DNA of 64,000 nucleotides from positions 6,603 to 70,602 of the forward strand of contig CAWGEI010000005.1 of the NCBI GenBank assembly GCA_963821585.1. The letters run 5' to 3'. The position numbers and the translations under genes were made by a program. A model generated the notes under the pieces. The model saw nothing but the letters and a program-made list of their open reading frames with translations, was not told where the DNA came from and did not search any database. Below are positions 1,288 to 57,653 of this stretch, piece by piece; positions within the stretch are counted from its first letter, which is position 1; each line of letters starts with the position of its first letter. The stretch is from an uncultured Acidobacteriota bacterium (GTDB lineage: Bacteria > Acidobacteriota > Thermoanaerobaculia > Gp7-AA8).

Positions 1288-1742
1288 AAGACCCCGATAA
1301 GCACCTCGACAGGCACCTCGACGTACTGGACCTGCCCGAAGACCTGCGCGACCTGATTCGCGAGTGCGCGGCGAAGGGCACACGCACGGTATTCGAGCGC
1401 AACCGCCGCCCGGTGGCGGCACTGGTCTCGTACGACGAGTACATGGCCCTGCGCGAGACGATCGAGATCGCGAACGACTCCCTGCTCTTCGCCAAGATCG
1501 CCGAAGCGGACGACGAGGAGGTCGAGCAGCGCGGGAAATACGAGCGGTTGCGCTTCGCGAAATCCGCCGCACCGATCTACGACGCCGCGCTGCGCCGCAT
1601 CGAGCTCGACCCCATCGTAGGCGCGCCGCTGTTCGAACCGCTGAAGGGACTGTGGAGTTACCGGACCGAGGAGCTGCGGATCATCTACAAGATCGTCGCG
1701 GAGGCGAAGATCGTGGTGATTCTGCACGTCACGAAAATGTAG
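1284..1742 (+). CDS. Single-polypeptide fusion of a Phd/YefM-like antitoxin and a RelE/ParE-like toxin
   Basis: GTG at 1284 overlaps the galU stop (GTGA). The N-terminal half, RTVFERNRRPVAALVSYDEYMALRETIEIANDS, is Phd/YefM-like. The C-terminal half, RLRFAKSAA...LKGLWSYRTEELRIIYKIVAEAKIVVILHV, is RelE/ParE-like. No stop codon separates the two halves. The TAG stop lies inside the family-1 repeat. Confidence 0.7.
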   Translation: MKDPDKHLDRHLDVLDLPEDLRDLIRECAAKGTRTVFERNRRPVAALVSYDEYMALRETIEIANDSLLFAKIAEADDEEVEQRGKYERLRFAKSAAPIYDAALRRIELDPIVGAPLFEPLKGLWSYRTEELRIIYKIVAEAKIVVILHVTKM

Positions 1743-1800
1743 GGCGTGGCTTCAGCCCGCCCCCCCACGGGAGAGGCGGGCTGAAGCCACGCCCTACGTT
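1737..1800. repeat. Family-1 inverted-doublet (REPIN-like) element, copy 1
   Basis: Arms GTAGGGCGTGGCTTCAGCCCGCC / GGCGGGCTGAAGCCACGCCCTACGTT around a 14-nt loop. Confidence 0.9.
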
Positions 1801-1816
1801 CCTATAAACTCGCGAC

Positions 1817-3948: not shown

Positions 3949-5031
3949 ATGATCCAAGTCATCCTCCTCTTTGGCGGAAGGTCCGCCGAGCACGAAGTCT
4001 CGATTCTGTCCGCGCGGTCGGTGGTGAAGGCCGCGCCGGCGGACCGCATCACGTTCACGCCGATGTGCATCGCACGCGACGGGAGGTTCGTCGCGCCGGA
4101 GCGCAGCGCGCGGATTCTGGAAGGCGCGGAGAAGAGCGTCGAAGGCGACGCGGATTTCTCGTTCGAGATCTGGTCCCGTACCGCGACGATCGACCTGGTC
4201 TTTCCGCTGATCCACGGCACGGGCGGCGAGGACGGCGCGCTGCAGGGCTATCTGGAAATCCTCGGGCTGCCGTACGGCGGCAGCAGCGTCACCGCGTCGG
4301 CCGTGGCGATGGACAAGGTCCACATGAAGCAGGCGTTCGCCGCGGCGAAGCTGCCGATGGTGGATTTCGTTCCCGTGCAGGAACACGACTGGCGGAACGA
4401 GCGCGAGCGCGTCGTGCGCGCGGTGACCAACGCGCTGCGGCTGCCGTATTTCGTGAAGCCCGCGAACACCGGCTCGTCGGTGGGTGTCACGAAGGTGAAG
4501 AACGACAAGGACCTTGCGACGGCCATGGACCACGCGTTCCGGTTCGACGAGAAATTGCTGATCGAGCGGGGAGTGGACGCGAGAGAGATCGAGGTCTCGA
4601 TCCTCGGCAACGAGACGCCGCAGGGATCGGTGCCGGGGGAGATCGTCGTGGGCCGGGAGTTCTACGACTACACGGACAAGTACGTGGAGAACAAGTCCTC
4701 CCTGGTCATCCCGGCGAAGCTGGCGAGCGACAAGGCGGCGGAGATCCAGCGACTGGCAATCGCCGCGTTCAAGGCGGTCGGGGCGTCGGGGTTCGCGCGC
4801 GTGGACTTCTTCCTCGAGCGGGGCACGAACCGGCTGTACCTGAACGAGATCAACACCATCCCTGGATTCACGAACATTTCGATGTACCCCAAGCTGTGGG
4901 AAGCGACGGAGCTGAAGTACCCCCGGCTGATCGAGCGCCTCATCACCCTCGGCATCGAGCGCTCCAAGGCGCGCAAGGCGCGCGGGGAGTCGACGATGCG
5001 CTGGTTCGACGAGGTGGCGCCGATTACGTAG
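3949..5031 (+). CDS. ddl: D-alanine--D-alanine ligase
   Basis: 360 aa. LLFGGRSAEHEVSILSA, HGTGGEDGALQG and EINTIPGFT are Ddl motifs. The stop TAG lies in ACGTAGGGCG, a family-1 repeat terminus fragment. Confidence 0.93.
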   Translation: MIQVILLFGGRSAEHEVSILSARSVVKAAPADRITFTPMCIARDGRFVAPERSARILEGAEKSVEGDADFSFEIWSRTATIDLVFPLIHGTGGEDGALQGYLEILGLPYGGSSVTASAVAMDKVHMKQAFAAAKLPMVDFVPVQEHDWRNERERVVRAVTNALRLPYFVKPANTGSSVGVTKVKNDKDLATAMDHAFRFDEKLLIERGVDAREIEVSILGNETPQGSVPGEIVVGREFYDYTDKYVENKSSLVIPAKLASDKAAEIQRLAIAAFKAVGASGFARVDFFLERGTNRLYLNEINTIPGFTNISMYPKLWEATELKYPRLIERLITLGIERSKARKARGESTMRWFDEVAPIT

Positions 5032-5043
5032 GGCGCGTGTGTC

Positions 5044-5213
5044 CTGTCGCCCGCTACGCGGGCTCGTTCCAACGCCCGCTTCGTGTTCCCCCGGCTGAAG
5101 CCGGGGGCTATTTTCTGGCAGCCCGCTACGCGGGCAAGAGGCAATAGACCCCGGCTTCAGCCGGGGGAACGAGCGCGCGACGTTGGATCGAGTCCGCGTA
5201 GCGGGCGGCAGAC
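5044..5213. repeat. Family-2 nested composite palindrome, copy A
   Basis: Layout is CTGTCGCCCGCTACGCGGGCTCG ... CCCCCGGCTGAAGCCGGGGGCTATTTTCT ... GCCCGCTACGCGGGC ... AATAGACCCCGGCTTCAGCCGGGGG ... CGAGTCCGCGTAGCGGGCGGCAGAC. Confidence 0.9.
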
Positions 5214-5294
5214 AACGCGTGTTTGGAGTGCGGATCAGCTACCATCGCGCGATCGTGCCCATCAGCGCAGAATGAAGTCCACCGCCCCCTGATC

Positions 5295-7418: not shown

Positions 7419-7739
7419 ATGTCCGACTCCACGCCACCGTCCCCACCACCCGCCCCCGCCGGTCCCGGCGGGGGTGGTCTCGTCTATCCGGCCAATCCGC
7501 CGAAAGACCCGGTTCTGATTCTCATCCTGAACCTAGTCTTCGGAATCGGGTACATCATGATGGGCCAGAAGACGAAAGGGATCGTCGCCATCGGTGCTTT
7601 CTGGGTGGTGACGTTCGCAACGTGCGGCCCGGGGAGCATCATCGCCGCGTTGTATGCGATCGACGGCTACCTGCAAGCGCAGCAGCTCCAGCAGGGACAC
7701 CCGGTCGGCGAGTGGACGTTCTTCAACGACCATCGGTAG
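7419..7739 (+). CDS. Pro-rich N-terminus plus TM2-like small membrane protein
   Basis: 106 aa: MSDSTPPSPPPAPAGPGGGG...LILNLVFGIGYIMMGQKTKGIVAIGAFW...YAIDGYLQAQ. Confidence 0.75.
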   Translation: MSDSTPPSPPPAPAGPGGGGLVYPANPPKDPVLILILNLVFGIGYIMMGQKTKGIVAIGAFWVVTFATCGPGSIIAALYAIDGYLQAQQLQQGHPVGEWTFFNDHR

Positions 7740-7743
7740 TCTT

Positions 7744-7836
7744 TGGAGTGCGGCGACGACTAGTCGCCGCTTTTCAATCTTTGCACGCTGAGCGCTCGAA
7801 GATAGGAAAGCGGCGACTCGCCGTCGCCGCACTCCA
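7744..7836. repeat. Long hairpin between convergent genes (30-nt arms, about 33-nt spacer)
   Basis: TGGAGTGCGGCGACGACTAGTCGCCGCTTT pairs with AAAGCGGCGACTCGCCGTCGCCGCACTCCA (3 mismatches). Each arm is itself self-complementary (GCGGCGAC/GTCGCCGC). Confidence 0.85.
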
Positions 7837-7838
7837 TA

Positions 7839-8204
7839 TCAGAACGGGTACAGCGGCGTGTTCCGCACGATCCAGTAGCTGGTCAGGACGAAGAACGCCG
7901 CCCACGCGAACCAGGGTTGCATGAGGAAGCGGGGCTGGCGACCTCGGAACAGGCTGGGGAGCGCGCACAGGGTCACGGCCAGCAGCAGGAAGAGCATCGG
8001 ATTGAGGCGGAAGGCCTCTTCGACGCGGCCGTGCAGCAGATGATGGAGCGCGCGCGTGGTGCCGCAGCCGGGGCATTCCAAGCCCGTCATCAGCCGGAAG
8101 GGGCATTGGGGGTAGAAGGCGTACGCCGTCGGCGGGAAGGTGAAGAGCACCCACCCACCGACGGCAGCCACGGCCGCGCTAACCGCGATTCGCCTGAGCT
8201 GCAC
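7839..8204 (-). CDS. DUF2752 family membrane protein
   Basis: 121 aa. CPFRLMTGLECPGCGTTRALHHLLHGRVEEAFRLNP is the DUF2752 signature. The gene overlaps the upstream gene by 26 nt. Confidence 0.85.
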   Translation of the reverse strand: MQLRRIAVSAAVAAVGGWVLFTFPPTAYAFYPQCPFRLMTGLECPGCGTTRALHHLLHGRVEEAFRLNPMLFLLLAVTLCALPSLFRGRQPRFLMQPWFAWAAFFVLTSYWIVRNTPLYPF

Positions 8205-9565: not shown

Positions 9566-9648
9566 AACGTAGGGCGTGGCTTCAGCCCGCCTCTCTGGTC
9601 GAAACCCCCGCCCACGAGGGGAGGCGGGCTGAAGCCGCGCCCTACGTT
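9566..9648. repeat. Family-1 inverted-doublet (REPIN-like) element, copy 2
   Basis: AACGTAGGGCGTGGCTTCAGCCCGCC ... GGCGGGCTGAAGCCGCGCCCTACGTT with a 31-nt loop. Confidence 0.9.
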
Positions 9649-9655: not shown

Positions 9656-10204
9656 TCACCACATCATGCCGAGCTGCAGGCGCGCCGCCTCGGACATCAT
9701 GCTGCGATCCCAGACGGGGTCGAACACGACGTCGACTTCGGCGTTCTTCACACCAGGCAGGCTCACGAGCTTGCTCTTCACGTCGCTGGCGAGGACCGGA
9801 CCCATGCCGCAGCCGGGCGCGGTGAGGGTCATCTTGATCTTGACGTTCTTCCCGCCCTCGTCCGACGCCTCCAACTCGCAGAGGTAGACGAGGCCGAGGT
9901 CGACGATGTTCACCGGGATCTCGGGGTCGTAGCAGGTTTTGAGCGCTTCCCAGACCATCTCTTCCAGCTTCTCGGGAGTGAGCTCTTCCGGTTTGACCTC
10001 CGCGGTCTCCAGCGGAGCCTTGCCGATGGCCTCGACTTCAACGCCGGACACCCGGACCATCAGCCCGCGGTCGGTGATCAGCGTGTACGTGCCGCCGAGG
10101 GACTGGGTGATCGTCGCCTGGGCGCCCTTCGGGACGAGGACTTTCTCCCCGCTGGGGATCATGACGGCTTCTGTGTTGCGGCTGAAGGTGATTTCTTCTC
10201 TCAT
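9656..10204 (-). CDS. sufT: SUF Fe-S assembly protein SufT (DUF59/MIP18 domain)
   Basis: 182 aa. CYDPEIPVNIVDLGLVY...LTAPGCGMG is a DUF59 motif. It is the last gene of the suf operon. Confidence 0.85.
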   Translation of the reverse strand: MREEITFSRNTEAVMIPSGEKVLVPKGAQATITQSLGGTYTLITDRGLMVRVSGVEVEAIGKAPLETAEVKPEELTPEKLEEMVWEALKTCYDPEIPVNIVDLGLVYLCELEASDEGGKNVKIKMTLTAPGCGMGPVLASDVKSKLVSLPGVKNAEVDVVFDPVWDRSMMSEAARLQLGMMW

Positions 10205-13840: not shown

Positions 13841-13863
13841 TTGTTTCCTTTGGCTCAGTTGCT

Positions 13864-15910: not shown

Positions 15911-16098
15911 CTGCCGCCCGCTACGCAGGCTGGACATCAACGCTCCCTCGCGTCCCCCGGCTGAAGCCGGGGTCTATTCTCTCAAGCCGCCTACGGCGGC
16001 TGGAACCCGAGCCTGCGTAGCAGGCACCAGAAAATAGACCCCGGCTTCAGCCGGGGAGACGGCGGCGCGATGAGATCAGCCCGCGTAGCGGGCGGCAG
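15911..16098. repeat. Family-2 nested composite palindrome, copy B
   Basis: Same module order as copy A. The central hairpins here are GCCGCCTACGGCGGC and GCCTGCGTAGCAGGC. Confidence 0.88.
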
Positions 16099-16140: not shown

Positions 16141-16671
16141 ATGAAAAACAGACTGATGTTCCCGTTGGTATTTGTCGCGGCGTGGGGGGTGGCGTGCAGT
16201 GGCGACGGAGCCCGGCGCGGCGCACAGCAGAACAACTACGAAACCGTTCAGGAAGGCTCGGCCGCGGGCGTGACGTCGACGATTCACGGGCCGGGCGAGG
16301 TGCTTCCGCCGGTCACGGGGACGAACGCGGATACGACCTCAGCCTTCACGATCGACCCGAACACGGCCGCCACGACAGTAGCGGTCGCACCACCCATGCC
16401 GGAGCCAATGCCGGTCACGGCGACAACGCCGGCTCGTTATCCGATTCCTCAGACTTCCGCCGTGCCGGTCCGGCAACCGCCTCCGGAGCGCGCACCCGAA
16501 CCCGCGCCTGCACCGCCTACGGAGACCGCGCCGCCTACCGAGACGGCGCCTCCCACGGAGACCGCACCCCCGACAAAGACGGACACGGTCGCGCAGCCAG
16601 GCGAGCAGGAGCAGGCAGAGCCGCAAGCGGAAGAGCCGCCTCCGACGACGACGGACACAAGGGGACAATAG
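16141..16671 (+). CDS. Secreted (possibly lipidated) Pro/Thr/Ala-rich protein
   Basis: 176 aa. Signal peptide MKNRLMFPLVFVAAWGVAC, then a low-complexity tail with APPTET repeats. The stop TAG falls in the first unit of the downstream hairpin. Confidence 0.7.
   Translation: MKNRLMFPLVFVAAWGVACSGDGARRGAQQNNYETVQEGSAAGVTSTIHGPGEVLPPVTGTNADTTSAFTIDPNTAATTVAVAPPMPEPMPVTATTPARYPIPQTSAVPVRQPPPERAPEPAPAPPTETAPPTETAPPTETAPPTKTDTVAQPGEQEQAEPQAEEPPPTTTDTRGQ
16510..16581 (+). repeat. In-frame 18-bp tandem repeat x4 (APPTET/APPTKT)
   Basis: gcaccgcctacggagacc / gcgccgcctaccgagacg / gcgcctcccacggagacc / gcacccccgacaaagacg. Confidence 0.85.
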
Positions 16672-16768
16672 GACGGATAGGACGAATAGGACCTATAGGA
16701 CAAGCAAGAGTCCACCCACCCGTTTCTCCCTATCCGTCCTATAGGTCCTATCCGTCCTATCGTCCTAT
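16668..16768. repeat. Hairpin with arms built from 9-nt ATAGGACNN sub-repeats
   Basis: ATAGGACGGATAGGACGAATAGGACCTATAGGAC ... CTATCCGTCCTATAGGTCCTATCCGTCCTATCGTCCTAT. Confidence 0.88.
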
Positions 16769-17668: not shown

Positions 17669-19706
17669 ATACTTTTTCGAGCTGCTGACCGAAGAGATCC
17701 CCGCGTGGATGCACGACGCGGCGGCCGCCACGCTGCGCGAGCGCCTGAGCGCCCTGTCCCTAAACACGGTGTCTAACGACGTGACCGTCAACTCGACGCC
17801 ACGGCGCATCATCTTCCTGCTGAAGAACCTCGCCGTCCGCGAGGAAGACCGCGAGCAGGAAGTGAAAGGGCCGCCGAAGAAGTCGCCCGAGGCCGCGCTG
17901 CAGGGCTTCCTCAAGAAACAGAACGCCACGGCCGACGACATCCTCCCTTCGACCGACGAGTACATCCGCATCAGGAAGAAGATCACCGGCCGCGACACGC
18001 GGGAGATCCTCGCGGAGCGCATTCCGGAGATCGTTCAGTCGATCCGCTGGCCGAAGATGATGCGCTGGGGCAACGGCGAGCATTCGTACATCCGTCCGAT
18101 CCACAGCGTCGTCTCGATCTTCGAAGGCGAGCACCTGCCGATCACGATCTTCGGCACACCGTCCGGCACGACCACCGTCGGCCACCGCACGCTCGCGCCG
18201 AAGGCCTTCAGCGTCGCGTCGTACAACGACTACGTGACGAAGCTCGAACTGGCGCGCGTGTATATCGACGCCGACCGCCGCAGGCACGGGATGGCCGCGG
18301 CGGCGATCTCGCTGTCCAAGGACGTCGAAGGGAAGCCGGCTGACGACGCGTCGATCTGGTCGCAGTGGCAGTACCTCACCGAATATCCGGGCCTCGTGCG
18401 CGCGGAGTTCCGCGGCGAGTACCTGGCGCTGCCCGAGGAAGTGCTCGTGACGGTGATGCGCGTGCATCAGAAGCAGCTCCCGATCCGCGACCGCAACGAC
18501 CGCCTCACCAGCTCGTTCCTGGCGGTGCTCGACAACGAGGGCGATCCGGACGGCAACGCCGCGTACGGCAACTCCTTCGTCACCAACGCGCGCTTCGCCG
18601 ACGCGCAGTTCTTCTACGACACCGACCGGCGCAGGAAGCTCGAGGACCGCCTCGAGCAGCTCACGCACCTGCAGTTCCAGGAGAAGCTCGGCAACTATCT
18701 CGACAAGACGAAGCGCGTGGAGCGCATCGCGCGCGGGATCCTCGATGACGAGGACGTCGCGACGGCCGCGCGTCTCTGCAAGTCCGACCTCGTCACCGAG
18801 ATGGTGAAGGAGTTCACGGACCTGCAGGGCCAGATCGGCGGCATCTACGCGCGCGAGGAAGGGCTGCCGGACAATGTCTGGCAGGCGATCTACGATCACT
18901 ACCAGCCGGTCAGCCTCGACGACGCGCTGCCGCGCCACATCACCGGCGCGGTGGTCTCACTCGCCGATCGCATCGACACGCTCGTCGGCTTCTTCTCCAT
19001 CGGCGCGAAGCCGACCGGTTCGAAGGACCCGTTCGGCCTGCGGCGCGCCGCGCAGGGCGTCGTGCAGATCCTGCTGAACCGGGACAAACGCGAGGTGAAG
19101 ATCGGCATCGACAAGCTGATCGACCTCGGCATGGAAGCCTACGGACAACAGGCAACGGGTAACGGGCAACTCAAAACCGATCTCCTCGCCTTCTTCGCCG
19201 AGCGCGTCCGCACGATTCTCGAAGCCTCGGCGTGGCAATTCGCGTACGACGAGATCGCCGCGGCGATGGAAGCGGGATGGGCGTCATCGCTCACGGACCT
19301 CGTCGACCGCACCGGCGCCGTGAAGGCCGTTCGCAACGAGCCCGACTTTCTCTCCCTGCTCGACTCGGCGAAGCGCATCGCGAACATCACCGAGGGGCAT
19401 GCGTCGAACCGGGTCGATGCGACGCGGCTCGAGCACGCGACCGAGAAGCGGCTCAACGAGCTCGCCGACGCCGTCGTGGTCCAGATCGGGGAGCTGAGCG
19501 CCGAGCGGCAGTACCGCATGGCCCTCGAATCATTCGCGGCGCTGGCGCCCGAGCTGGAGACGTTCTTCAAGGACGTCCTCGTCAACGTGGAGGATCAGGA
19601 CGTGCGTACCAACCGGCTCTCGCTTCTCCGCAAGGTGGGCGGCGCGGCCATGAAGATCGCGGACGTGACGAAGATCGTCGTCGATCGCCGCGATTACCGC
19701 GCGTGA
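17661..19706 (+). CDS. glyS: Glycine--tRNA ligase beta subunit
   Basis: 681 aa. It overlaps the glyQ end and has a typical GlyS N-terminus ([11 protein letters not shown]). Confidence 0.93.
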
Positions 19707-20947
19707 GCCGCCCAGCCGTCGTCCTCCTGCTCTGCTGCACGCTCCTCGCGTGCCGCGAGGACGCGCCTCCTCCCGCCGCCGCCAAAGCACCCGCGCCGCC
19801 CGCGCGCATCGCGGCGACGCCGGACAATGACTCCGACAACTCGTTGAATCTCATGTACGGCGCCGCGGTCGTCTCCCGCACCGGCGAGCTGCACCTCGAA
19901 AACTCTGCCGTCCACACGATCGACGGGTTCGCCGAGACCATCTGGATGTCCGCGCCCGGCGTGCCGGAAGAGATGCTGGTCTATTCGATGCTCGCGCCCA
20001 CGCGCCTGCAGCGCGTCGGCATCAGCACCCACAGCGGCGACGACGCGGTGGACAGCGTCGCCTTCGCCGCGTCGATGGACGGGAAGACGTGGACGGATCT
20101 CGGCACGCTGAAAGCCACGCGCACGGACGAGCGGCAGTTCCTGGACGTGAAGCCGACCGTCGCGCACTACCTCCGCGTCCGCACGATCGATCCCGCGGGG
20201 CGCTACTACGTCCGCCTGCGCGGTGTCCACGCGATCGGCGAGGAGGTAGCGGCGCCGAAGACACCGTCGTTCAGCGGCTGCTGGATGATCAACGGGGAGC
20301 GCGCGCACCTGGAGCAGCACGGTGCGCGCATCACGGGCGTGATCGAGAGCGATCCGCCGGCGTACATCGACGGCGGCACGGACAACCGCGCGGGGATGAT
20401 CATGTGGATGCGCGGTCTGACGTGGGGCTACGCGGTGATCACGCGCTCGCCTAACGGAGAGCATCTCTCGGGGTTGAGCTTCTTCGAGGAAGTAGACAAG
20501 AACATCGGCGAGGGGTGGTTCGGGGAGAGATGTAACGTAGGGCGTGGCTTCAGCCCGCCCTCCCCGGGGGCGGGCGGGCTGAAGCCACGCCCTACGTTGT
20601 TCTTCGCTCGCGCGAAGCGGTATTCGCTGTACGGGCTGGTCTTCGATGCGAACGACCGGCTCGTCGAGGAAGTGAGCGAACCGACGCTCGATGTCCTGGC
20701 CTCGCTGATCGCCTCTGCGTCGCAGCCGATGCGGCTCGTCGCGCGCGAGCTGCGCTACACCCCCGAGCAGAACCGGCAGCACGCGGCGGCGCGGCTGCAG
20801 GCGATCCGCGCCGCACTCGAACGGCGCGGGGTGAACCTCTCCCGGATCGAGTTCGTCAACGCGGGCGGCGACACCGGCGGAATCGTCCTCCGCTCTTCCC
20901 TTCAGCGAGCGCTCCTCAGCCGCGTCGACCTCGTTTCTGGGACATAA
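19703..20947 (+). CDS. Lipoprotein with a discoidin (F5/8 type C)-like domain and a degenerate OmpA-like C-terminal domain; carries an in-frame family-1 repeat
   Basis: GTG at 19703 overlaps the glyS stop. Lipobox LLAC is present. ...[38 protein letters not shown] is discoidin-like. The frame stays open through the repeat ([23 protein letters not shown]). Confidence 0.75.
20534..20598. repeat. Family-1 inverted-doublet (REPIN-like) element, copy 3, located inside the CDS
   Basis: AACGTAGGGCGTGGCTTCAGCCCGCC ctccccgggggcg GGCGGGCTGAAGCCACGCCCTACGTT. Confidence 0.9.
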
Positions 20948-24884: not shown

Positions 24885-24945
24885 AACGTAGGGCGTGGCT
24901 TCAGCCCACCTTTTTGGACGGCACGCTGTAGCCACGCCCTACATT
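24885..24945. repeat. Family-1 element, copy 4 (degenerate right arm)
   Basis: AACGTAGGGCGTGGCTTCAGCCCACC ... GCTGTAGCCACGCCCTACATT. The inner part of the right arm is missing. Confidence 0.7.
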
Positions 24946-24952
24946 CTTTCGC

Positions 24953-29701: not shown

Positions 29702-29890
29702 CTGTCGCCCGCTACGCGGGCTCGTTCCCAGCGACCGCGCTATTCCCCCGGCTGAAGCCGGGGTCTATTTTCTGTAGCCCGCTACGCGGGCAGAATTTGC
29801 CGCCGTAGGCGGCGACAGAAAATAGCCTCCGGCTTCAGCCGGAGGACTGCGACGGGTTGGGGTTGCGAGCCCGCGTATGCGGGCGGCAGA
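29702..29890. repeat. Family-2 nested composite palindrome, copy C
   Basis: CTGTCGCCCGCTACGCGGGCTCGTTCC ... CCCCCGGCTGAAGCCGGGGTCTATTTTCT ... GCCCGCTACGCGGGC / GCCGCCGTAGGCGGC ... AATAGCCTCCGGCTTCAGCCGGAGG ... CGAGCCCGCGTATGCGGGCGGCAGAG. Confidence 0.9.
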
Positions 29891-32683: not shown

Positions 32684-33523
32684 TTGAAGGAACCAACCAA
32701 AATCCGCATCGGCCCGGCGGGCTGGAGCTACAAAGATTGGGAAGGCGTCGTCTACCCGTCGCACGGTTCGAAGTTCGACGCACTCGGCTATCTCGCGCAG
32801 TTTTTCGACACCATCGAGATCAACTCGCCGTTCTATCGCATCCCTCCGCCGACACACTCGAAGAGCTGGGTGAAGCGCGTCGCCGTGAACGACAATTTCA
32901 AGTTCACGACGAAGATCTATCGCGGCTTCACGCACGAGACCGAGGCGCTGTCGAAGGATGACGTGCAGGCGTTCCGCAACTACCTCGACCCTCTCATGGA
33001 AGCCGACCGCCTCGGCGCGATCCTCATCCAGTTCCCGTGGAGCTTCAAGAACACGCCCGAGTCCCGCGCGAAGCTCGTCAAGCTCTTCGGCGCCTTCAAG
33101 GACTACCCGCAGTCCCTCGAAGTACGGCACTCGACGTTCCAGGTGCCGGAGCTCTACGAGCTCCTGGACGAGCACGACGTCGCCTGGGTGAACGTCGACC
33201 AGCCGCTGTTCAGCGACTCCGTGAAGCCGGCGGACACGGTGACCGGTCCCGTCGCGTACGCGCGCTTCCACGGACGCAACTACGAGAAGTGGTTCGCGCA
33301 CGACGAATCGTGGGAGCGCTACAACTATCTCTACTCCGAGCGGGAGCTCGCGCCGTGGGTCGAGCGCATCGAGCGGATGGCGAAGAAGCGCGACACGTAC
33401 GTGATCACCAACAACCACTTCCGCGGCCAGGCCATCCTGAACGCGGGCGACCTCAAGGAGTCGCTGGGCCAGGACGCAACGCTGCCTCCGCAGTTGAAGG
33501 AGGCCTACCCCGACCGGACGTAG
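32684..33523 (+). CDS. DUF72 (UPF0759/YecE-like) protein
   Basis: 279 aa. IRIGPAGWSYKDWEGVVYP...FDTIEINSPFYR is the DUF72 signature. The start is TTG. The stop TAG lies inside the family-1 repeat. Confidence 0.88.
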   Translation: MKEPTKIRIGPAGWSYKDWEGVVYPSHGSKFDALGYLAQFFDTIEINSPFYRIPPPTHSKSWVKRVAVNDNFKFTTKIYRGFTHETEALSKDDVQAFRNYLDPLMEADRLGAILIQFPWSFKNTPESRAKLVKLFGAFKDYPQSLEVRHSTFQVPELYELLDEHDVAWVNVDQPLFSDSVKPADTVTGPVAYARFHGRNYEKWFAHDESWERYNYLYSERELAPWVERIERMAKKRDTYVITNNHFRGQAILNAGDLKESLGQDATLPPQLKEAYPDRT

Positions 33524-33580
33524 GGCGTGGCTTTAGCCCGCCTCCCCCGGGGGAGGCGGGCTAAAGCCACGCCCTACGTT
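33518..33580. repeat. Family-1 inverted-doublet (REPIN-like) element, copy 5, with a compensatory arm substitution
   Basis: ACGTAGGGCGTGGCTTTAGCCCGCC tcccccggggga GGCGGGCTAAAGCCACGCCCTACGTT. Confidence 0.9.
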
Positions 33581-41926: not shown

Positions 41927-42676
41927 ATGGACATCCGCTCCATCACCGCCCCGAACCCCGGCCCGTTCACCCTCGACGGCACGCGCACCTACCTCCTCGG
42001 CGAGACGGCGGTCCTCGACCCCGGTCCCGCGATCGGCTCGCACATCGATGCGATTCACGCCGCGATGCCGCGTCTCGAGACCATCCTCATCACCCACCGC
42101 CACGGCGATCACGCGCCCGCCGCGGTGCCCCTGAAACAGCGCACCGGCGCGCGGATCATCGCGCCGCGCAACGTCCTCGATAGCGGATTGGACAAGGTCG
42201 ACCAGCGCGTCGAAGGCGGAGAAGTCCTGTCCATCGGCGGCGTCGAGGTCGAAGTGATCGCCACCCCCGGCCACACGAACGAGCACGTGTGCTATCTGAC
42301 GTCCGAGGGCGACCTCTTCACCGGCGACACCATCCTCGGCGCCGGCACCACCGCCATCTTCCCTCCCGACGGCCACATGGGCGACTACCTCCGCTCCCTG
42401 CAGATCCTCCGCGAGCGCAACCCGAAACGGATCCACCCCGCCCACGGTCCCACCCGCGACGACGCCGTCGCGCTCATCGACGAGTACATCACCCACCGTC
42501 TGGCCCGCGAGCGCCAGATCCTCGCCGCAATCGCCGCGGGCGCGCAGACGCTGCAGGACCTGCGCAAGCGCGTCTATCCGGTGCTCAACCCTCAGCTCCA
42601 CGGCGCCGCGGAGATCCAGCTGACCGCGCACCTGATCAAGCTGCGCGAAGAGGGCCGCACCACCCTGTCATTCTGA
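41927..42676 (+). CDS. MBL-fold metallo-hydrolase
   Basis: 249 aa: ILITHRHGDHAPAA...TPGHTNEHVC. The stop TGA lies inside the family-3 repeat. Confidence 0.88.
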   Translation: MDIRSITAPNPGPFTLDGTRTYLLGETAVLDPGPAIGSHIDAIHAAMPRLETILITHRHGDHAPAAVPLKQRTGARIIAPRNVLDSGLDKVDQRVEGGEVLSIGGVEVEVIATPGHTNEHVCYLTSEGDLFTGDTILGAGTTAIFPPDGHMGDYLRSLQILRERNPKRIHPAHGPTRDDAVALIDEYITHRLARERQILAAIAAGAQTLQDLRKRVYPVLNPQLHGAAEIQLTAHLIKLREEGRTTLSF

Positions 42677-42766
42677 GCCGCGTAGACGGCGAAGAATCCC
42701 CCGCCGAAGCATACGACGCGCTCAACGCACGGGATCCTTCGCCGTCTACGCGGCTCAGGATGACAG
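42665..42766. repeat. Family-3 hairpin element (GTCATCCTGAGC...GCGTAGAC...GAAGGATCC type), copy 1
   Basis: CTGTCATTCTGAGCCGCGTAGACGGCGAAGAATCC ... GGATCCTTCGCCGTCTACGCGGCTCAGGATGACAG. Confidence 0.9.
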
Positions 42767-42767
42767 G

Positions 42768-43223
42768 TCAGCGCGGGATTACCGTCCTGATGAAGCTCTT
42801 GTTCACGAAGTACGTGTCGTCCTCGGCGTCGATGCGCACGAACGACTCCGTCTGATCGTTCAGCACGTCCGAGATGCGCGAGGACTCGCGGGGGCGGTCG
42901 CCGATGGGGATCATTCCTTCGATGCGCGTGCCGTCCGCGAGCTCGAGGATGGTCAGCTTCTCGATCATCGTCGAGTCGAGGTCCACGATGTCCGGGAGCT
43001 TCTCGTAGCGTACCCAGAGGACCTGGTCGCGATTGAGCATCTTCGGCACGCCGGCGCAGACCATAGGGAAGAAGCGCCGCCTCCCGTTGAGATAGTCGGC
43101 GACGGACTCCGGGCCGTCGCGCCGCTCCGCGTACGGCGCCAGATAGAGAAAGTGCTCCTCGGGCTCGGCGCGTGCGAGAGCGACGATCACCGCGACCTCG
43201 ATCATCGGGACCTGGTAGGCCAT
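42768..43223 (-). CDS. Hypothetical protein
   Basis: 151 aa with non-repetitive, protein-like composition. No family recognised. Confidence 0.6.
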   Translation of the reverse strand: MAYQVPMIEVAVIVALARAEPEEHFLYLAPYAERRDGPESVADYLNGRRRFFPMVCAGVPKMLNRDQVLWVRYEKLPDIVDLDSTMIEKLTILELADGTRIEGMIPIGDRPRESSRISDVLNDQTESFVRIDAEDDTYFVNKSFIRTVIPR

Positions 43224-43249: not shown

Positions 43250-44173
43250 ATGAAACACAAAGACTTCATCGAAGTAACCGACTACACCGCGGACGAGGTC
43301 CTGGAGCTCTTCCGCCTCGCCGCGGACATGAAGAAAGACAAGGACCAGTACCGCACCGCGCTGGCGGGGCAGACGCTGGCGATGATCTTCGAGAAATCGT
43401 CGACGCGCACGCGGGTCTCGTTCGAGGTGGGGATGTACCAGCTCGGCGGCCACGCGCTGTTCCTCTCCTCGCGCGACATCCAGCTCGGCCGCGGCGAGCC
43501 GATCACCGACACCGCGCGCGTGCTCTCGCGCTACGTCGACGGCATCATGGCCCGCACTTTCGCGCACAAGACCGTCACCGACCTCGCCGAGTACGCGACC
43601 GTACCCGTGATCAACGGACTCACGGACCTCTCGCACCCCTGCCAGTCGATGACCGACTACTTCACCGCGTGGGAGAGGTTCGGCGGCAATCTCAAGGGCC
43701 GCAAGATGGCGTACGTCGGCGACGGCAACAACATGGCCCACTCGCTCCTCGTCGCCGCGCCGAAGGTGGGCATGGACATCGCTGTAGCCACTCCCGCGGA
43801 CTACGCCCCGAACGCCGAGGTCGTGGCGGAGGCGCAGGCAGCCGCGCGCGAGGCGGGAACGAAAGTGATCCTCACGAACTCGATGGACGAAGCCATCAAA
43901 GACGCCGACATCGTCGAGACCGACGTGTGGGCGTCGATGGGACAGGAAGCCGAGGCCGAGAAGCGCAACCGCGACTTCCACGGCTGGATGGTCGACGCCC
44001 GCCACATGGCCTCGGCGAAGAAGGACGCGATCTTCATGCACTGCCTCCCCGCCCACCGCGGCGAGGAAGTCGCGGCCGAAGTCATCGACAGCCCGGCATC
44101 CGTAATCTACGACGAAGCGGAGAATCGCCTGCACGTGCAGAAGGCGATCATGTATACCTTGATGAAGAAGTAG
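43250..44173 (+). CDS. argF: Ornithine carbamoyltransferase
   Basis: MKHKDFIEVTDYT...FEKSSTRTRVSFE...HPCQ...HCLPAHRGEE. Start is at ATG 43250; the ORF track starts at 43172. Confidence 0.93.
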   Translation: MKHKDFIEVTDYTADEVLELFRLAADMKKDKDQYRTALAGQTLAMIFEKSSTRTRVSFEVGMYQLGGHALFLSSRDIQLGRGEPITDTARVLSRYVDGIMARTFAHKTVTDLAEYATVPVINGLTDLSHPCQSMTDYFTAWERFGGNLKGRKMAYVGDGNNMAHSLLVAAPKVGMDIAVATPADYAPNAEVVAEAQAAAREAGTKVILTNSMDEAIKDADIVETDVWASMGQEAEAEKRNRDFHGWMVDARHMASAKKDAIFMHCLPAHRGEEVAAEVIDSPASVIYDEAENRLHVQKAIMYTLMKK

Positions 44174-44174
44174 G

Positions 44175-44262
44175 CAGTCGACAGTTGGCAGTTGACAGGA
44201 GAGCCCGCACACCCCCGGCGTTCTCCCTCTCCTGCCAACTGCCAACTGCAAACTGTCAACTG
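44175..44262. repeat. Hairpin with arms built from 7-nt CAGTTGG/CAGTTGA sub-repeats
   Basis: CAGTCGACAGTTGGCAGTTGACAGGAGAG ... CTCTCCTGCCAACTGCCAACTGCAAACTGTCAACTG. Confidence 0.88.
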
Positions 44263-45287: not shown

Positions 45288-46226
45288 ATGTCCCGCTTCA
45301 CCTTCCCCCATGCTCCCGGCGATCTCATCGGTGCACACCTCTCGACGCAGGGAGGGCTGCACACGATCTTCGAGCGCGCGTCCGCCATCGGCGCAACCGC
45401 CGCGGCGCTGTTCGCGAAGAACGGAAACCAGTGGCTAGGGAAGACGCTCACGGACGAGCACTGTGCGACGTTCGCGTCGCAGCGCAACGTGGCGCCGCTG
45501 CTCACGCACGCGTCGTATCTGATCAACCTCGCGGGAACAAACGAGGACTTCCACCGCAAGTCGATCGCCGCGCTGATCGACGAGCTCGATCGCGCCGAAC
45601 GCCTCGGCATTCACGCCGTCGTCCTCCACCCCGGTGCGCACCTGGGCGCGGGCTCCGCTGCAGGGGTAGACCGCATCGCCCGCTCGCTGGACCAGGTCCA
45701 TGCGGCAATCCCGCACCATCGCGTCGTCACGCTGCTGGAGACGGGCGCGGGACAGGGCACGTGCGTCGGCTGCACGTTCGAGGAGCTGGGCCGCATGATC
45801 CGGCTCGTCGACGATCCCAAGCGCGTCGGCATCTGCTTCGACACCTGTCACGTGTTCGCCGCCGGCTACGAGATGCGCACGCGCGACGCGTACGAGCGAA
45901 CCATGGACGAGCTGATCCGCCACGTGGGCCTGGACAACGTCGGCGCGTTCCACCTCAACGACTCGAAGAAACTCCTCGGCTCCCGCGTCGACCGCCACAC
46001 CCACATCGGCGAAGGCGAGCTCGGACTGGAGCCGTTCCGCTTCCTGCTCAACGACCCGCGGTTCGCGCGCATCCCGAAGGTGATCGAGACGCCGAAGGAC
46101 GTGGAGACGATTTCGGACCAGCGCAATTTGCGCGTGTTGCGGTCGCTGATCGGGGAGTCTCAAAGTCGGAAAGTCTCAAAGTCTCAAAGAAGAAGACGAA
46201 CGGCTGCTGTCGCAGCATCTCTTTGA
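45288..46226 (+). CDS. nfo: Endonuclease IV (deoxyribonuclease IV)
   Basis: 312 aa: IGAHLS...HASYLINLA...VLHPGAH...LETGAGQG...CFDTCH...HLNDSK. The last about 25 codons ([24 protein letters not shown]) are encoded by the downstream hairpin repeat. Confidence 0.9.
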
Positions 46227-46245
46227 GACTTTGCGACTTTGAGAC
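46155..46245. repeat. Hairpin with arms built from 8-nt GTCTCAAA sub-repeats
   Basis: GAGTCTCAAAGTCGGAAAGTCTCAAAGTCTCAAAGAAG ... CTCTTTGAGACTTTGCGACTTTGAGAC. The loop holds its own mini-hairpin, GCTGC-tgtc-GCAGC. Confidence 0.88.
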
Positions 46246-46291
46246 CCCGTATTGCGAGGGTCGTGACGGTTCAGCTAGAGTGCGGCGCCAA

Positions 46292-47712: not shown

Positions 47713-47770
47713 ACTCGTTCGACGATTTTTCCAGCTCGCCAGAGCTCCGCGCAGCATTTATGGAGTGCCG

Positions 47771-47857
47771 GTGTCATCCTGAGTCGCGTAGACGCGGAGG
47801 ACCTTCCCCCCTGCCACGTGGAAGGTCCTTCGCTGTCTACGCAGCTCAGGATGACAC
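47771..47857. repeat. Family-3 hairpin element, copy 2
   Basis: GTGTCATCCTGAGTCGCGTAGACGCGGAGGACCTTCC ... GGAAGGTCCTTCGCTGTCTACGCAGCTCAGGATGACAC. Confidence 0.9.
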
Positions 47858-47912
47858 CTTGGATGACACCTGGGCACACGCCTCTGAAACCCCGCGTTGT
47901 GGCAGCCGTAGG

Positions 47913-48068
47913 CCGTACCGGCGAGCCGCCGGTGGACCGGCCGGCCAGCGGCCGGCGCTCCACATGTGCCCTCACCCCGCTCGTCGAGAAGGCGAACGAC
48001 GCACGAGCAGACGCAGGAAGGCGCGCCGGCTGCCAGCCGGCCGGTCCACCGGCGGCTCGCCGGTGCGG
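47913..48068. repeat. Long GC-rich inverted repeat (about 46-nt arms, about 64-nt spacer)
   Basis: CCGTACCGGCGAGCCGCCGGTGGACCGGCCGGCCAGCGGCCGGCGC ... GCGCCGGCTGCCAGCCGGCCGGTCCACCGGCGGCTCGCCGGTGCGG. Confidence 0.85.
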
Positions 48069-51904: not shown

Positions 51905-51910
51905 GGCCGG

Positions 51911-52107: not shown

Positions 52108-52169
52108 ACGGGGGCCGAGAGACCTCAGATTCATCTCCTGCCCCCCGCGCCCTGCCCCCCGCCCCCTGA

Positions 52170-54026: not shown

Positions 54027-54039
54027 TCGGGTGCTGAGT

Positions 54040-55869
54040 CTACTGCAAGGGCGTGGCCGCCGGCTCGGACCAGGAGATTGCTTCGAGGCTCAACCCGAGC
54101 TCGCGACCGTCATCTTTCGGCCGGATGGGCTGGTCGGTCGCGAGGAGCAGCTGGTTCGCGCCTTCGCGATGGCTCGGCAGGATGTACCGGAGATCCAGCT
54201 TGCCGTTCGGTGGCGCGGTCCGGCGATCGATCACGGTCCCGTTCCACGTCAAGGTGATCACCGGCGGCCTCGGCGTCGCATCCACGGGCGCATGCAGTCT
54301 CAGGCGCAGCTCTCCCTGCCCGTAAAGCGCGGGGGAAAGGAGGATCTCGCCCTCGCGCTGCATCCAGCGCCAGTGGTTCCGGCCGTCGGTCTCGAGCAGG
54401 TGCCAGCCGCGGGACCAGCGAATGATGCGGCGCATCGGGACGACACCGATCTCGAAGAAGCGCGGCCGTGTGATCTCGAAGAGCTGCTCCCGCTTGCGCG
54501 TGAACATGCGGATGCCGGGATGCTGCCGCTCGCCCTCGAAGAGGTAGTAATTCCCGGCCACCAGATCCTCGGCCGGCAACTCTTCGTCATGGCCAACGAT
54601 GCGGTAGTCATAGTCGCCGATGACATACGCCGCGTGGTAGGCGAGATTCACCTGCACGTAGACGCGGGGCCCGGTTTTGGGGACGTTCGTCCGGATCCAT
54701 TGGAATGCAGCGACGGCCGGGGCCGGCTCGGTGCGCGCGAAGCGCAGCGCCGGCCATGTCCATTTGGCAAGCGACCAGGTGACGAACCCCGACAGGACCA
54801 GGAAAAGCGGCAGGCGCGCGCGCGACGGCACGAGCTGCGCGACGGCCTCCGCACCCGCGACGGCGAGGAATGCGTGCAGCGGCAGATAGGCGATCGCGTA
54901 GCGCGCCAGCGCCGACATGTCGAGCATCAGCCAGGTGAGGACCGCCATCGGCAGGAACATGACCAGGAGCACGGCGATGCTCCACCGTCTCCGCACGAGC
55001 GCGTCGAGGAGCGCGACGGCAGCGAGAATCACCACCGCGAACCGCGCTCGCCCGCCTCCCTGCGGATAGAGAAACACGCGCGGCGCCAGTTCGCGCAGCG
55101 GCGTGCGGTACGGATTGCGGAAGGAGTCGGTCTCGCGGAGGTGCTTCTGGATGTAGCGCACTTCCTCGAGGTAGGCGGCAGGAAAGCCGGTGGAGTAGTA
55201 CGCCGCGCCGAGATAAGCGAGGAAGACGACCGCCGCGGCGGCGAGCCACGAGAGAACGAAAGTCTTCATCCGGCGCAACGCGAAGGCGCCGAGGAGCGCG
55301 GGGGGCGCGGCGACGAGGAGGAGTTGCGGGCGGATGCCACACGCCAGGGCGGTGAGGAGCGCGCCGGCCAGGTAGGCACTCGAGCTGCGTCCGCCGCGCA
55401 GCAGCAGAGCCGCCGCGAACAGGATCAGCGCCAGGGCGGGGACGTCGCTCAAGCCGGTACCGCCGTGGTACCAGACGGACGGCAGAAACGCGGTCATCGC
55501 CGCCACGCTGAACGCGAACGGCGTCCGGAAACGCAGCTCGCGGGCCAGGAGGAATGCCGCGGGGAAGACCAGCATCGACGCCAGCGTGGCCACGGCTTGC
55601 AGCGCGTGAAAATCGGTGTCGGTGAAGAGCCGCGCGACCTTCGCCGCGGCGATGAAGAGCGGATAGCCGGGCGGATGGGGGTGGTGCGGCTTGACGTCGT
55701 ATTCGCTCACGCCGAACGCGAACAGGGTCTCGTCCCAGTCGTGAAGCGTCATCGACAGCGCGGGAAAGCGGGTGAGCGCAATCGCGACTGCAAGAATGTT
55801 GAAGAGGATTTTCTGGCCGCGGGTCAAGGAGATGGGAGACTCACGAAGGGCAGCGAGATACGCGAGCAT
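54040..55869 (-). CDS. GT-C-fold membrane glycosyltransferase (DUF2723/PMT-like)
   Basis: 609 aa: DWDETLFAFGVSEYDVKPHHPHPPGYPLFIAAAK, then many TM helices and a soluble C-terminal domain. Confidence 0.75.
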   Translation of the reverse strand: MLAYLAALRESPISLTRGQKILFNILAVAIALTRFPALSMTLHDWDETLFAFGVSEYDVKPHHPHPPGYPLFIAAAKVARLFTDTDFHALQAVATLASMLVFPAAFLLARELRFRTPFAFSVAAMTAFLPSVWYHGGTGLSDVPALALILFAAALLLRGGRSSSAYLAGALLTALACGIRPQLLLVAAPPALLGAFALRRMKTFVLSWLAAAAVVFLAYLGAAYYSTGFPAAYLEEVRYIQKHLRETDSFRNPYRTPLRELAPRVFLYPQGGGRARFAVVILAAVALLDALVRRRWSIAVLLVMFLPMAVLTWLMLDMSALARYAIAYLPLHAFLAVAGAEAVAQLVPSRARLPLFLVLSGFVTWSLAKWTWPALRFARTEPAPAVAAFQWIRTNVPKTGPRVYVQVNLAYHAAYVIGDYDYRIVGHDEELPAEDLVAGNYYLFEGERQHPGIRMFTRKREQLFEITRPRFFEIGVVPMRRIIRWSRGWHLLETDGRNHWRWMQREGEILLSPALYGQGELRLRLHAPVDATPRPPVITLTWNGTVIDRRTAPPNGKLDLRYILPSHREGANQLLLATDQPIRPKDDGRELGLSLEAISWSEPAATPLQ

Positions 55870-55895
55870 GGGACGGCCCGCATTCTGTCATCATT

Positions 55896-57653
55896 ATGTC
55901 CATCACAAACAAGCAGCATCCGGGAGGTCTCGTGTCACGAATTCGCGTGTGGACGCTGTTCGCAGTCGTCGTTCTCTGCTGTACCGCGTCCGCGCAGGAC
56001 ACGCGCATCGGGGAATCGATCGAGGTCTCGATCGTCAACGTCGAGGTTCACGTCACGGACAAGCAGGGGAACCGCGTGACCGGGCTGCGGGCGGAGGACT
56101 TCGAGATCCGGGAGAACGGCAAGGCCCAGCCGATCACGAACTTCTCGGAGTACGTTTCGGCGGGCTCCGCCGGGACGGCGGCGGTCGAAGCGGCGCCCGG
56201 GAGTGCGGCTGTGAGCTCGTCCGTGAAGGCCGAGGCTCCGCCGCGGCTGCGGCGCTCGATCGTGCTGTTCATCGAGCCACTCACCCTCGCCAACTTCCGG
56301 GCGAAGGAGTTTTTCGACTCCCTCCGCACCCTGCTGCGGCGCACGGTCGAGAAAGGCGATCAGGTCTCGATCGTCACCTTCGTGCGCGCGACGCGCATCC
56401 GCCAACCGTTCACGGACGACATGGCCAGCATCGACACCACGCTCGCCGCGCTGGAGAAAGAAATGACCGGCGTCGAGGGCAATACCTACGACGAGAGCAG
56501 GTTCGTGCTCGCCGAGGCGGCGTCGTTCGAGAAGGAGTACGAGGAAGCGCTTACCGAGCTCGGATTCCCCCCGCCGGGCAACAGTACACCCGTGTCCATG
56601 TCCGAGCTGGCTGCGGCACGGCGGGAGCTCTTCCTGATCCGCCAGAAGACCGCGGCGCTGGAGTCGCTCATCCAGAGCATCTCCGGCGCGGACGCACGCA
56701 AGATCCTGATCATGGCCCCGCGCCGCTTCGGGTTGTACGCGGGGGCCCATTACTTCGGCGGAGCCGTTCCGACCCAATACAGGCAGGAACTGGACACGAC
56801 GCAGTATCGGCAGTCGCTCATCGCCAAGGCGAACGCCAACGGCGTGACGATCTACACGCTCCATCCGGAAGGGCTGCTGAACACGAGCAGCAACGATCCG
56901 TCGATCTCGGGCCAGGACCGCATGGTGAGCACGCTCGAGCAGGATCTCGCCCGTGCGAGACTCGGCAACGGGATCCTGATGAATGAGTCCTCGGCGCTGG
57001 ATGAGGTCGCGGTCGCGACCGGCGGTCTCAGCGCATGGGGGAGCACGGGCATCGCGAAGCTGCTCCCCCGGGTCGGCGACGACCTCGAGACCTACTACTC
57101 GCTCGCGTACAGGGCCACGGCGACGGGGAAGGACGCCGCGCGCAAGATCGTCGTCACGACGAAGAATCCGGCCCACGTCGTGCGGGCGCGGAAGCAGTTC
57201 GTCGAAAAGTCCGAGACGACGCAGATCAAGGACCGCGTGCGCTCGAACCTGTTCCAGAAGGTCGAGGGCTCGAGCGCGCAGATTCCGTTCGACGTGGCGG
57301 TGGGGACGGTCAAGAAGACCGGCAGGAACCGCTGGACGGTGCCGCTGAAGATCCGCATCCCGATCGGCAGCCTGACGACCTTGCCGCGCGGCCCCGAGGA
57401 GTCGGGAACGTTCTCCGTCTTCTTCGCCACCGGCGGCGTCCTCGGCGTCATGAGCGAAGTCGAGCAGCGCACACAGTCGTTCACCATCCCCCGCGGCGAC
57501 GTCGCGCGCGCGAAGACGTCGCACTTCACGTACGACCTCGAGCTCTCGATCGACCAGCTCGTGAAGTCCCTGTCGATCGCGGTGATGGACGACGTCGGCA
57601 AGGAGTTCGGCATCAAGCGGTACACGCTGCCGAAGGAATCTGCCGCCCGCTGA
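55896..57653 (+). CDS. VWFA-related (acidobacterial-type) domain protein, secreted
   Basis: 585 aa: IEVSIVNVEVHVTDKQGNRVTGLRAEDFEIRENGKAQPITNF, then a VWA-like region. The last codons and the TGA stop lie in family-2 copy D. Confidence 0.85.
   Translation: MSITNKQHPGGLVSRIRVWTLFAVVVLCCTASAQDTRIGESIEVSIVNVEVHVTDKQGNRVTGLRAEDFEIRENGKAQPITNFSEYVSAGSAGTAAVEAAPGSAAVSSSVKAEAPPRLRRSIVLFIEPLTLANFRAKEFFDSLRTLLRRTVEKGDQVSIVTFVRATRIRQPFTDDMASIDTTLAALEKEMTGVEGNTYDESRFVLAEAASFEKEYEEALTELGFPPPGNSTPVSMSELAAARRELFLIRQKTAALESLIQSISGADARKILIMAPRRFGLYAGAHYFGGAVPTQYRQELDTTQYRQSLIAKANANGVTIYTLHPEGLLNTSSNDPSISGQDRMVSTLEQDLARARLGNGILMNESSALDEVAVATGGLSAWGSTGIAKLLPRVGDDLETYYSLAYRATATGKDAARKIVVTTKNPAHVVRARKQFVEKSETTQIKDRVRSNLFQKVEGSSAQIPFDVAVGTVKKTGRNRWTVPLKIRIPIGSLTTLPRGPEESGTFSVFFATGGVLGVMSEVEQRTQSFTIPRGDVARAKTSHFTYDLELSIDQLVKSLSIAVMDDVGKEFGIKRYTLPKESAAR

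Follow-up and report, generated by a model that had tools for sequence, protein, structure and literature searches.

Hairpin repeats at gene 3' ends and the protein C-termini they supply in a soil Acidobacteriota chromosome

Gene 3' ends were analysed in a 64,000-nt stretch of the chromosome of a soil Acidobacteriota bacterium of the Thermoanaerobaculia (contig CAWGEI010000005.1, positions 6,603 to 70,602), which is called the window here. The GC content of the window was 66%, and its MurC was 92% identical to the MurC of the Thermoanaerobaculia metagenome-assembled genome (MAG) SMAG_U1737 (locus L046). The 3' intergenic spacers were densely packed with highly stable hairpin repeats, which fell into four kinds. 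These were F1, F2, F3 and tandem-unit hairpins, and they were defined by repeat finding and alignment. Dozens of syntenic Thermoanaerobaculia loci were used for comparison, and the related loci amounted to 1.34 Mb. Pfam confirmed or supported five gene identities, which were ddl, DUF72, the MBL hydrolase (MBL and BLACT_WH), nfo and, at the borderline, a gene with Phd and ParE matches. The Pro-rich and "VWFA" proteins had no Pfam match.

The original prediction was that at least seven genes take their stop codon or C-terminus from a repeat. All seven stop codons lay where it had placed them, and six lay within a hairpin repeat or on its border. The TAG of ddl was located 12 nt before an F2 element. 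When orthologs were aligned, the C-termini differed at the element boundary in five genes, namely the Phd/ParE-like, DUF72, MBL hydrolase, nfo and VWFA-related genes. The stops of ddl and the Pro-rich gene were native. Two further features had been missed, an eighth stop within a hairpin (TAG 44171-44173 of an OTCase-like gene) and an F1 element in frame inside a gene (20534-20599).

F1 had the form (AAY)GTAGGGCGYGGCTTYAGCCCGCC-loop-inverse. It was a GTAG-headed doublet of repetitive extragenic palindromic (REP) sequences and resembled the palindromes known as REPINs. Every F1 copy started with (AAY)GTAGGGCG. The arms were 28-32 nt long and 90-100% complementary, with folds of −61 and −66 kcal/mol. 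Matches were found in at least 88 loci, with 130 heads in high-GC loci. Five copies were located in the window and are given together with a related stop codon:

1736-1800: F1 copy, fold of −61 kcal/mol; holds the stop of the Phd/ParE-like gene
1805-1807, plus strand: relic of the native TAA of the Phd/ParE-like gene, in frame once F1 is removed
9566-9648: F1 copy, located about 8 nt past the stop of a minus-strand gene that ends at 9656
20534-20599: F1 copy, in frame inside the F5/8-type-C protein gene
24886-24946: F1 copy
33518-33579: F1 copy; holds the last codon and stop of DUF72

The Phd/ParE-like gene (about 1290-1742) stopped at TAG 1740-1742 within F1. Its last two codons, K and M, were also F1 sequence, so the tail read HVTKM-stop. 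Orthologs ended in VVILxVxRxxx followed by variable tails of 4-9 residues. In the DNA alignment, the orthologs read ACGCGG and then ATAGAC.., and the window read ACG, then AAAATGTAG..F1..CTACGTTCC, then TATAAAC. When F1 was removed and the flanks were joined, the tail became ...HVTNL-stop (NL in place of KM), and the orthologs L095 and L102 stopped at the equivalent TAA. This meant that F1 had been inserted two codons ahead of the native stop, and K, M and TAG now came from it. There was no TAG at the insertion point in the orthologs. The gene had been described as a toxin-antitoxin fusion. It was a single gene with a Phd/YefM antitoxin-like N-terminus and a ParE toxin-like C-terminus, both Pfam matches lying just under their gathering scores. 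It was kept between galU and maf in every locus compared, and about 25 species had it there. Since its place was the same throughout, it was considered a stable core gene and not a mobile toxin-antitoxin module.

In the DUF72 gene (32684-33523), F1 gave ACG-TAG (33518-33523), which was the last codon T and the stop. More than 100 orthologs were 279 aa long and ended ..YP[DE]RF-stop, and the window protein ended ..YPDRT-stop. Relatives at 92-96% identity had no F1 and ended RF-stop. At the DNA level, the relatives read CGG TTY TAG/TGA and then other hairpins, compared to CGG ACG TAG(F1) in the window. These results showed that the last codon and the stop were F1 sequence and that the native spacer had been replaced.

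The positions of F1 relative to gene stops were counted in the related loci. F1 was predominantly extragenic and followed unidirectional or convergent genes; 60 of the 130 heads had a gene stop within 300 nt upstream. Nearly half of these (28 of 60) lay within 26 nt of the stop, where six shared the TAG and 22 were 4-26 nt past it. The genes with the six TAG-donating heads ended ..M-stop or ..T-stop from AAT/CGTAG. The original prediction had proposed a count of element positions against stop codons, and in these loci F1 was indeed in excess on the stop itself. Six of 60 heads lay there, compared to about one per neighbouring position (Poisson P about 6e-4, uncorrected for about 28 positions).

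F1 was also found in frame within long ORFs (open reading frames) with high GC3 (GC at third codon positions). Twelve such elements were present, about one in six of the F1 elements seen (window 20534-20599, L003, L010, L012, L021, L023, L025, L031, L035, L046, L073 and L087). They were read in two stop-free frames, one of which gave CRARLQPAP.... The host of the window copy was a gene for a 414-aa F5/8-type-C protein (19703-20947), where the element was translated and took the place of a variable linker. The same intragenic copy was present in SMAG_U1737 and was partly duplicated there. Homologs of this gene from a representative search were at most 72% identical and had a variable linker at the F1 site, with no clean empty site. 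No close relative of this F1-containing gene was confirmed in a metagenome scan.

The 23-nt F1 arm GTAGGGCGTGGCTTYAGCCCGCC was also observed in genomes of about 40% GC, where it formed REPIN-like doublets with AT-rich loops. The hosts were Methyloprofundus, Bathymodiolus methanotrophic symbionts and Methylococcaceae, and one match was in a Verrucomicrobia MAG (L045). The loci with this arm were L004, L007, L015, L024, L028, L036, L040, L047, L049, L051-L053, L058-L062, L070, L071, L082, L084, L085 and L088. An identical REP arm across phyla suggests that a REP system and its REP-associated tyrosine transposase (RAYT) may have been transferred. In the low-GC methanotroph set (Methyloprofundus and kin), none of the 37 F1 heads touched a gene end.

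F3 elements were long palindromes with the head CCTGTCATYCTGAGCC (GTCATCCTGAGC head). Two copies were located in the window:

42664-42767: F3 copy; its right end abuts the stop 42768-42770 of a convergent gene
47770-47858: F3 copy

The MBL hydrolase ended in CTG TCA TTC TGA within the first copy, which was read as L-S-F-stop (TGA 42674-42676). Orthologs free of the element ended ..KLREEGR plus one or two residues (EEGR[V/A/G]-stop). The window protein and those of L125 and L126 ended ..EEGRTTLSF with the TGA inside F3, and those of L128, L129 and L143 ended ..LSS with the TGA within F3-like heads. Across the related loci, six F3 heads donated a TGA, including that of ddl in L115, and the others lay 3-28 nt past stops. 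The L115 case (about 6745) was independent and from another species; its ddl ended ...EVTSIADVSS with the F3 TGA, not the usual ...EVxxLT-stop. A literature search for the F3 head sequence gave only unrelated primer matches.

F2 was a composite of 160-196 bp bounded by terminal inverted repeats (TIRs) and consisting of two inverted modules of the Acido-Lenti-1 type. With its TIRs CTGYCGCCCGCTACGCGGGC and GCCCGCGTAGCGGGCGRCAG, its lack of coding capacity and its several copies, it resembled a miniature inverted-repeat transposable element (MITE). Four copies were located in the window:

5044-5211: F2 copy A, TIR-bounded inverted pair of Acido-Lenti-1-like modules; starts 12 nt past the ddl stop
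15911-16070: F2 copy
29702-29858: F2 copy C; inner module matches Rfam RF01687 above the gathering score
57640-57835: F2 copy D; right end 6 nt from the stop 57842-57844 of a convergent gcvP-like gene

No direct repeat (target-site duplication) was visible at the boundaries of these four copies. F2 was present or absent at orthologous sites between species.

The VWFA-related protein gene (55896-57653) took (S)AAR and its TGA (57651-57653) from F2 copy D. Its orthologs ended ..LPK followed by P-stop, RE-stop, TAKE-stop, EARK-stop or TARQ. The window protein and its 89%-identical relative in L190 ended ..LPK[E/Q]SAAR with the TGA in F2, and the same loop insertion was present in both. It had been suggested that TGA replaced the TAC of the loop. 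The change was found to be a 1-nt insertion in the loop of the first hairpin, CTAC to CTGAC, which created the TGA. Without it the ORF would be 14 codons longer and would run to the TGA of GGCTGAAGCC.

In the case of ddl, the stop TAG 5029-5031 (plus strand) was native, because orthologs free of any element ended identically. About 27 orthologs of equal length ended ...DEVxxL[TS] with TAG or TGA, including loci with no element after the stop. The element-free orthologs L096, L098, L106, L108 and L112 had TAG at the same position, and the tail without an element read ...DEV(A/K)(P/S)LT. The ddl stop had been assigned to a terminal fragment of F1, and this was not borne out. The resemblance covered only 10-12 nt (ACGTAGGGCGCG), part of it (ACGTAGGG) was native in the element-free context of L089, and there was no second half beyond F2. 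The same short match and missing half ruled out an insertion of F2 into F1.

The tandem-unit hairpins had arms of 3-9 tandem units of 7-10 nt each. In the related loci, 67 examples were found across L003-L179. The units were of the types ATAGGAC, GTCTCAAAG, GTGCTGA, GTTGNCAG, GCAGAAG, GGATTGA and GTTCCTCGG. The same types recurred at unrelated loci and in different species, and the loops were unrelated. Besides those at 13862, 39723 and 40527, the window contained three at the gene ends considered here:

16663-16765: tandem-unit hairpin, unit NNATAGGAC; its first TAG (16669-16671) is the native stop of the Pro-rich lipoprotein-like gene (16141-16671)
44169-44261: tandem-unit hairpin, unit GTTGNCAG; starts on the native TAG 44171-44173 of the OTCase-like gene
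46154-46248: tandem-unit hairpin, unit GTCTCAAAG; nfo (45288-46226) stops at TGA 46224-46226 in its right arm

The nfo gene was translated through the left arm and loop of its hairpin, and about 25 C-terminal codons were hairpin sequence. Distant orthologs of 280-288 aa ended ..LRSLLSR-stop, with no hairpin and about 12 nt to icd. In the window and at least nine relatives, the reading frame of nfo extended for 20-30 codons into a hairpin of the GTCTCAAAG type and stopped at a TGA in the right arm. Solved Nfo structures aligned only to residue 269 of 312. The nfo hairpin was an old structure, conserved among orthologs, and not a recent insertion.

The Pro-rich gene gave a different result. Its tail ...TTTDTRGQ-stop (...EEPPPPTTTDTRGQ-stop) was kept in dozens of orthologs, and the ortholog in L197 had the same TAG and no hairpin. 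The stop was therefore native, and the ATAGGAC array started on it. Orthologs of the OTCase-like gene also had the same ...MKK-stop ending with different hairpins. When 48 tandem-hairpin sides facing a gene end were examined, the stop was inside 13 and 3-15 nt away from 25 (79% together). About half of the ATAGGAC hairpin sides began on a TAG stop.

Six elements were folded, which were F1 at 1736 and 33518, F3 at 42664, and the hairpins at 16655, 44167 and 46150. Their fold energies were −50 to −76 kcal/mol with z-scores of −7 to −13. Direct reading of the window sequence showed no T-run after the GC-rich hairpins. The sequence after F1 was CCTATAAAC or TGCGAGG, that after F3 was TCAGCGCGG, and CCCGTATTGCG came after the nfo hairpin. 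This meant that they were not canonical intrinsic terminators. Matches of the hairpins to Rfam microRNA families were far under the gathering scores and were rejected as generic hairpin matches.

The hairpin family in the same orthologous 3' spacer differed from one species to another, and some species had none. After ddl, F2 was present in the window, F3 in L089, L103 and L115, and GTTGNCAG-, CAGCTCG- or AGCCAGA-type hairpins elsewhere (L089-L115). The spacers between murC and ddl (about 5545-5640 in L090, L094, L095, L098, L101, L103 and L112), between DUF72 and selB (L193-L195) and downstream of the Phd/ParE gene (L090, L099, L104 and L105) varied likewise. Where tandem-unit hairpins occupied orthologous spacers, the unit type differed between species. 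Different families at the same spacer indicated rapid turnover at fixed sites.

Elements were thus present or absent at orthologous sites, termini differed at the element boundary, and the outcome depended on the reading frame. We consider it likely that the elements insert into, or take the place of, sequence at the very 3' ends of genes, and that the only copies to survive selection are those that provide a stop at once or leave the frame open. The elements would land in, or substitute for, the few bases surrounding a stop codon, and occasionally they would do so within a gene. For F1, the mobilising enzyme might be a RAYT-type Y1 transposase. Selection would then remove the copies that damage the protein, and three kinds of survivors would be left. 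The first kind would lie just downstream of a stop. The second would overrun the last 1-25 codons and give an in-frame stop at once or soon after. Such a stop would be the TAG in the GTAG head, a TGA in GTCATCCTGAG or in the complement of GTCTCAAA, or the TGA made by the F2 loop indel. The third would be intragenic copies read in a stop-free frame, which would add short in-frame peptides in linkers. A frame containing a stop would be tolerated only at the extreme 3' end, within two codons for F1. The surviving hairpins might function as 3'-end RNA structures. Five of the seven listed genes belong to the second kind, and ddl and the Pro-rich gene have kept native stops.

Several points weigh against this reading. 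The count of at least seven genes was inflated, since two of the stops were native. The proposal that elements insert at or over gene 3' ends and replace the native termini held for five termini, but insertion was too simple a description for DUF72 and the intragenic F1. In both, native sequence had been replaced, so an extra step of deletion, recombination or replacement of an earlier hairpin is needed. No target-site duplication was evident. No RAYT-like ORF flanked by F1 and no pair of F1 heads 300-1500 nt apart were found in the loaded loci, to which the search was confined. The gene models were based on ORF and GC3 criteria and not on a trained gene caller. In addition, the nfo hairpin was old and conserved, so selection for a function, instead of tolerance alone, is possible there.

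This last point leads to the alternative that survives best. Hairpins flush with or overlapping the stop may have been kept because they link the end of translation to the formation or stability of mRNA 3' ends or to the stalling of ribosomes, and the overlap would then be adaptive. We regard this as unlikely, though it is the most serious of the alternatives. Nearly every species had some hairpin at the same 3' spacers (downstream of ddl, DUF72-selB and murC-ddl) with differing families, the nfo hairpin and its read-through persisted in at least nine species, and 79% of the tandem-hairpin sides lay over a stop or within 15 nt of it. REPs of E. coli that have a stop codon less than 16 nt away offer a precedent, and REPs within 15 nt of the stop are described in PMC12306157 as stalling ribosomes and lowering translation. 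However, the missing T-run does not fit a canonical terminator, the orthologous spacers of L094, L095, L100, L101 and L105 had no hairpin at all, and deletion bias in a compact genome would also pack elements tightly.

It is improbable that the shared TAG is host sequence, with an enzyme that inserts beside a (G)TAG-like target and prefers native TAG stops. Such targeting would be analogous to that of IS200/IS605 transposases, which insert 3' of a tetranucleotide matching their own cleavage site. It would account for the excess of F1 heads right at the stop codon (6 of 60), for the native TAG of the Pro-rich gene being the first TAG of its ATAGGAC array, and for the ATAGGAC sides that start on TAG, a triplet scarce elsewhere in a 66% GC genome. 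However, the Phd/ParE-like orthologs had no TAG at the insertion point, the last codon of DUF72 was changed together with the stop, and most F1 copies were 4-26 nt from stops or intragenic without an in-frame TAG. In Methyloprofundus 0 of 37 heads touched a gene end, which also speaks against it. Targeting of stop codons and positive selection for a stop-proximal hairpin are possible contributors, and neither is needed to explain the data. A third alternative, that elements merely abut pre-existing stops and share TAG or TGA by chance with no terminus replaced, describes ddl, the Pro-rich gene and the OTCase-like gene (44171), and spacers are so short that many elements sit 0-15 nt from stops anyway, but it is likewise improbable, and ortholog comparison already refuted it for five genes, in which the residues before the stop differed from all element-free orthologs exactly at the element start and, in one, the relic TAA 1805-1807 came back in frame on removal of F1.

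The replacement of termini by elements was compared with known systems. F1 is similar to GTAG REPs and REPINs (PMC3733652; Nunvar et al. 2010, PMC2817692) in being a short, high-copy, GTAG-headed palindrome in inverted doublets. It is also mostly found after unidirectional or convergent genes, with the TAG as a flanking stop and some copies intragenic. For GTAG REPs, the use of TAG as the stop of flanking ORFs and copies wholly within ORFs were both reported in 2013 (Di Nocera, De Gregorio & Rocco, PMC3733652). The idea that the GTAG/TAG motif of F1 provides a ready-made stop was therefore right but already published. F1 differs from the published GTAG REPs in its host phylum, in that no RAYT was found in the loaded loci, and in that its 23-nt arm also occurs in gammaproteobacterial methanotrophs. 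The hosts listed for GTAG REPs were Proteobacteria, Cyanobacteria, Chloroflexi and the PVC group; Acidobacteria were mentioned only for TIR-flanked tyrosine transposases (PMC3733652).

Where QMITE1/2 of Coxiella burnetii overlap functional genes, they do so at the 3' end only (Wachter et al. 2018, PMC5896051). They supply the stop or a few to 33 C-terminal residues, and the protein size is little changed. The DUF72, Phd/ParE, MBL and VWFA cases are similar to this, and nfo corresponds to the longer tails. The element families and the host are unrelated, however, and at least four element classes do so here in one 64-kb window. REPs of E. coli less than 16 nt downstream of stops stall ribosomes, according to a study cited in PMC12306157 (its ref. 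17). As there, the predicted stable hairpins here would fall within the footprint of a terminating ribosome, most of them lying 0-15 nt from the stop or overlapping it. Unlike there, several are translated and not merely adjacent. Rickettsia palindromic elements (RPEs) are translated in frame inside genes, and Neisseria Correia elements alter gene ends. Their behaviour is comparable to that of the intragenic F1 peptide, but the sequences and hosts differ. RPEs carry CGTC-type tags (PMC3733652).

The principle is not new, because it has been published that GTAG REPs donate TAG stops (PMC3733652) and that MITEs alter the 3' ends of genes (PMC5896051). The phenomenon is a new instance of a behaviour already described; the phylum is new for it, and several classes of element take part together. 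It provides a case series, tested with orthologs, of selfish or structural hairpin repeats remodelling protein C-termini in a little-studied soil phylum. This also matters for annotation. Repeat-derived tails (25 aa added in nfo) and in-frame REPIN peptides will be called genuine protein, and "family-specific" C-termini may be repeat scars.

The less familiar part of the findings is the tandem-unit hairpins and the turnover at orthologous 3' spacers. We suggest tentatively that the tandem-unit hairpins of Thermoanaerobaculia could form a previously undescribed class of 3'-end elements that is found throughout the clade. Slippage together with arm-to-arm template switching might make them grow in place, starting at the stop codon. 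Alternatively, the units might be arrays of binding sites for a putative mobilising or RNA-binding protein. If true, either origin would be a new mechanism by which gene 3' ends are made and renewed.

The F2 modules were compared with Rfam RF01687, Acido-Lenti-1 (Weinberg et al. 2010, PMC2864571). The covariance model matched the inner module at 29798-29845 with 38.9 bits, against a gathering score of 37. A second match of 28.5 bits at 5088-5127 was below this threshold. Unlike the Rfam motif, the one here is half of a multi-copy, TIR-bounded inverted dimer. Since it is multi-copy, TIR-bounded and variable in presence, the inner module behaves as a dispersed repeat and not as a stand-alone small RNA (sRNA) gene. 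The Rfam family may thus cover a piece of a dispersed repeat and not an sRNA gene, and Acido-Lenti-1 should probably be re-read as a module of such a repeat.

Three convergent spacers in the window were filled to the base (7742-7838, 42664-42767 and 57640-57835), the first of them by another palindrome:

7742-7838: TGGAGTGCGG-type palindrome; fills the convergent spacer from 2 nt past the plus-strand stop 7737-7739, with 0 nt to the minus-strand stop at 7839

The TGGAGTGCGG-type family also followed DUF72 in L194 and L195. A GC-rich palindrome of 156 nt (47913-48068), with 49-nt arms that were 90% complementary, was located beside the second copy of F3, within the convergent spacer of 550 nt that follows icd.

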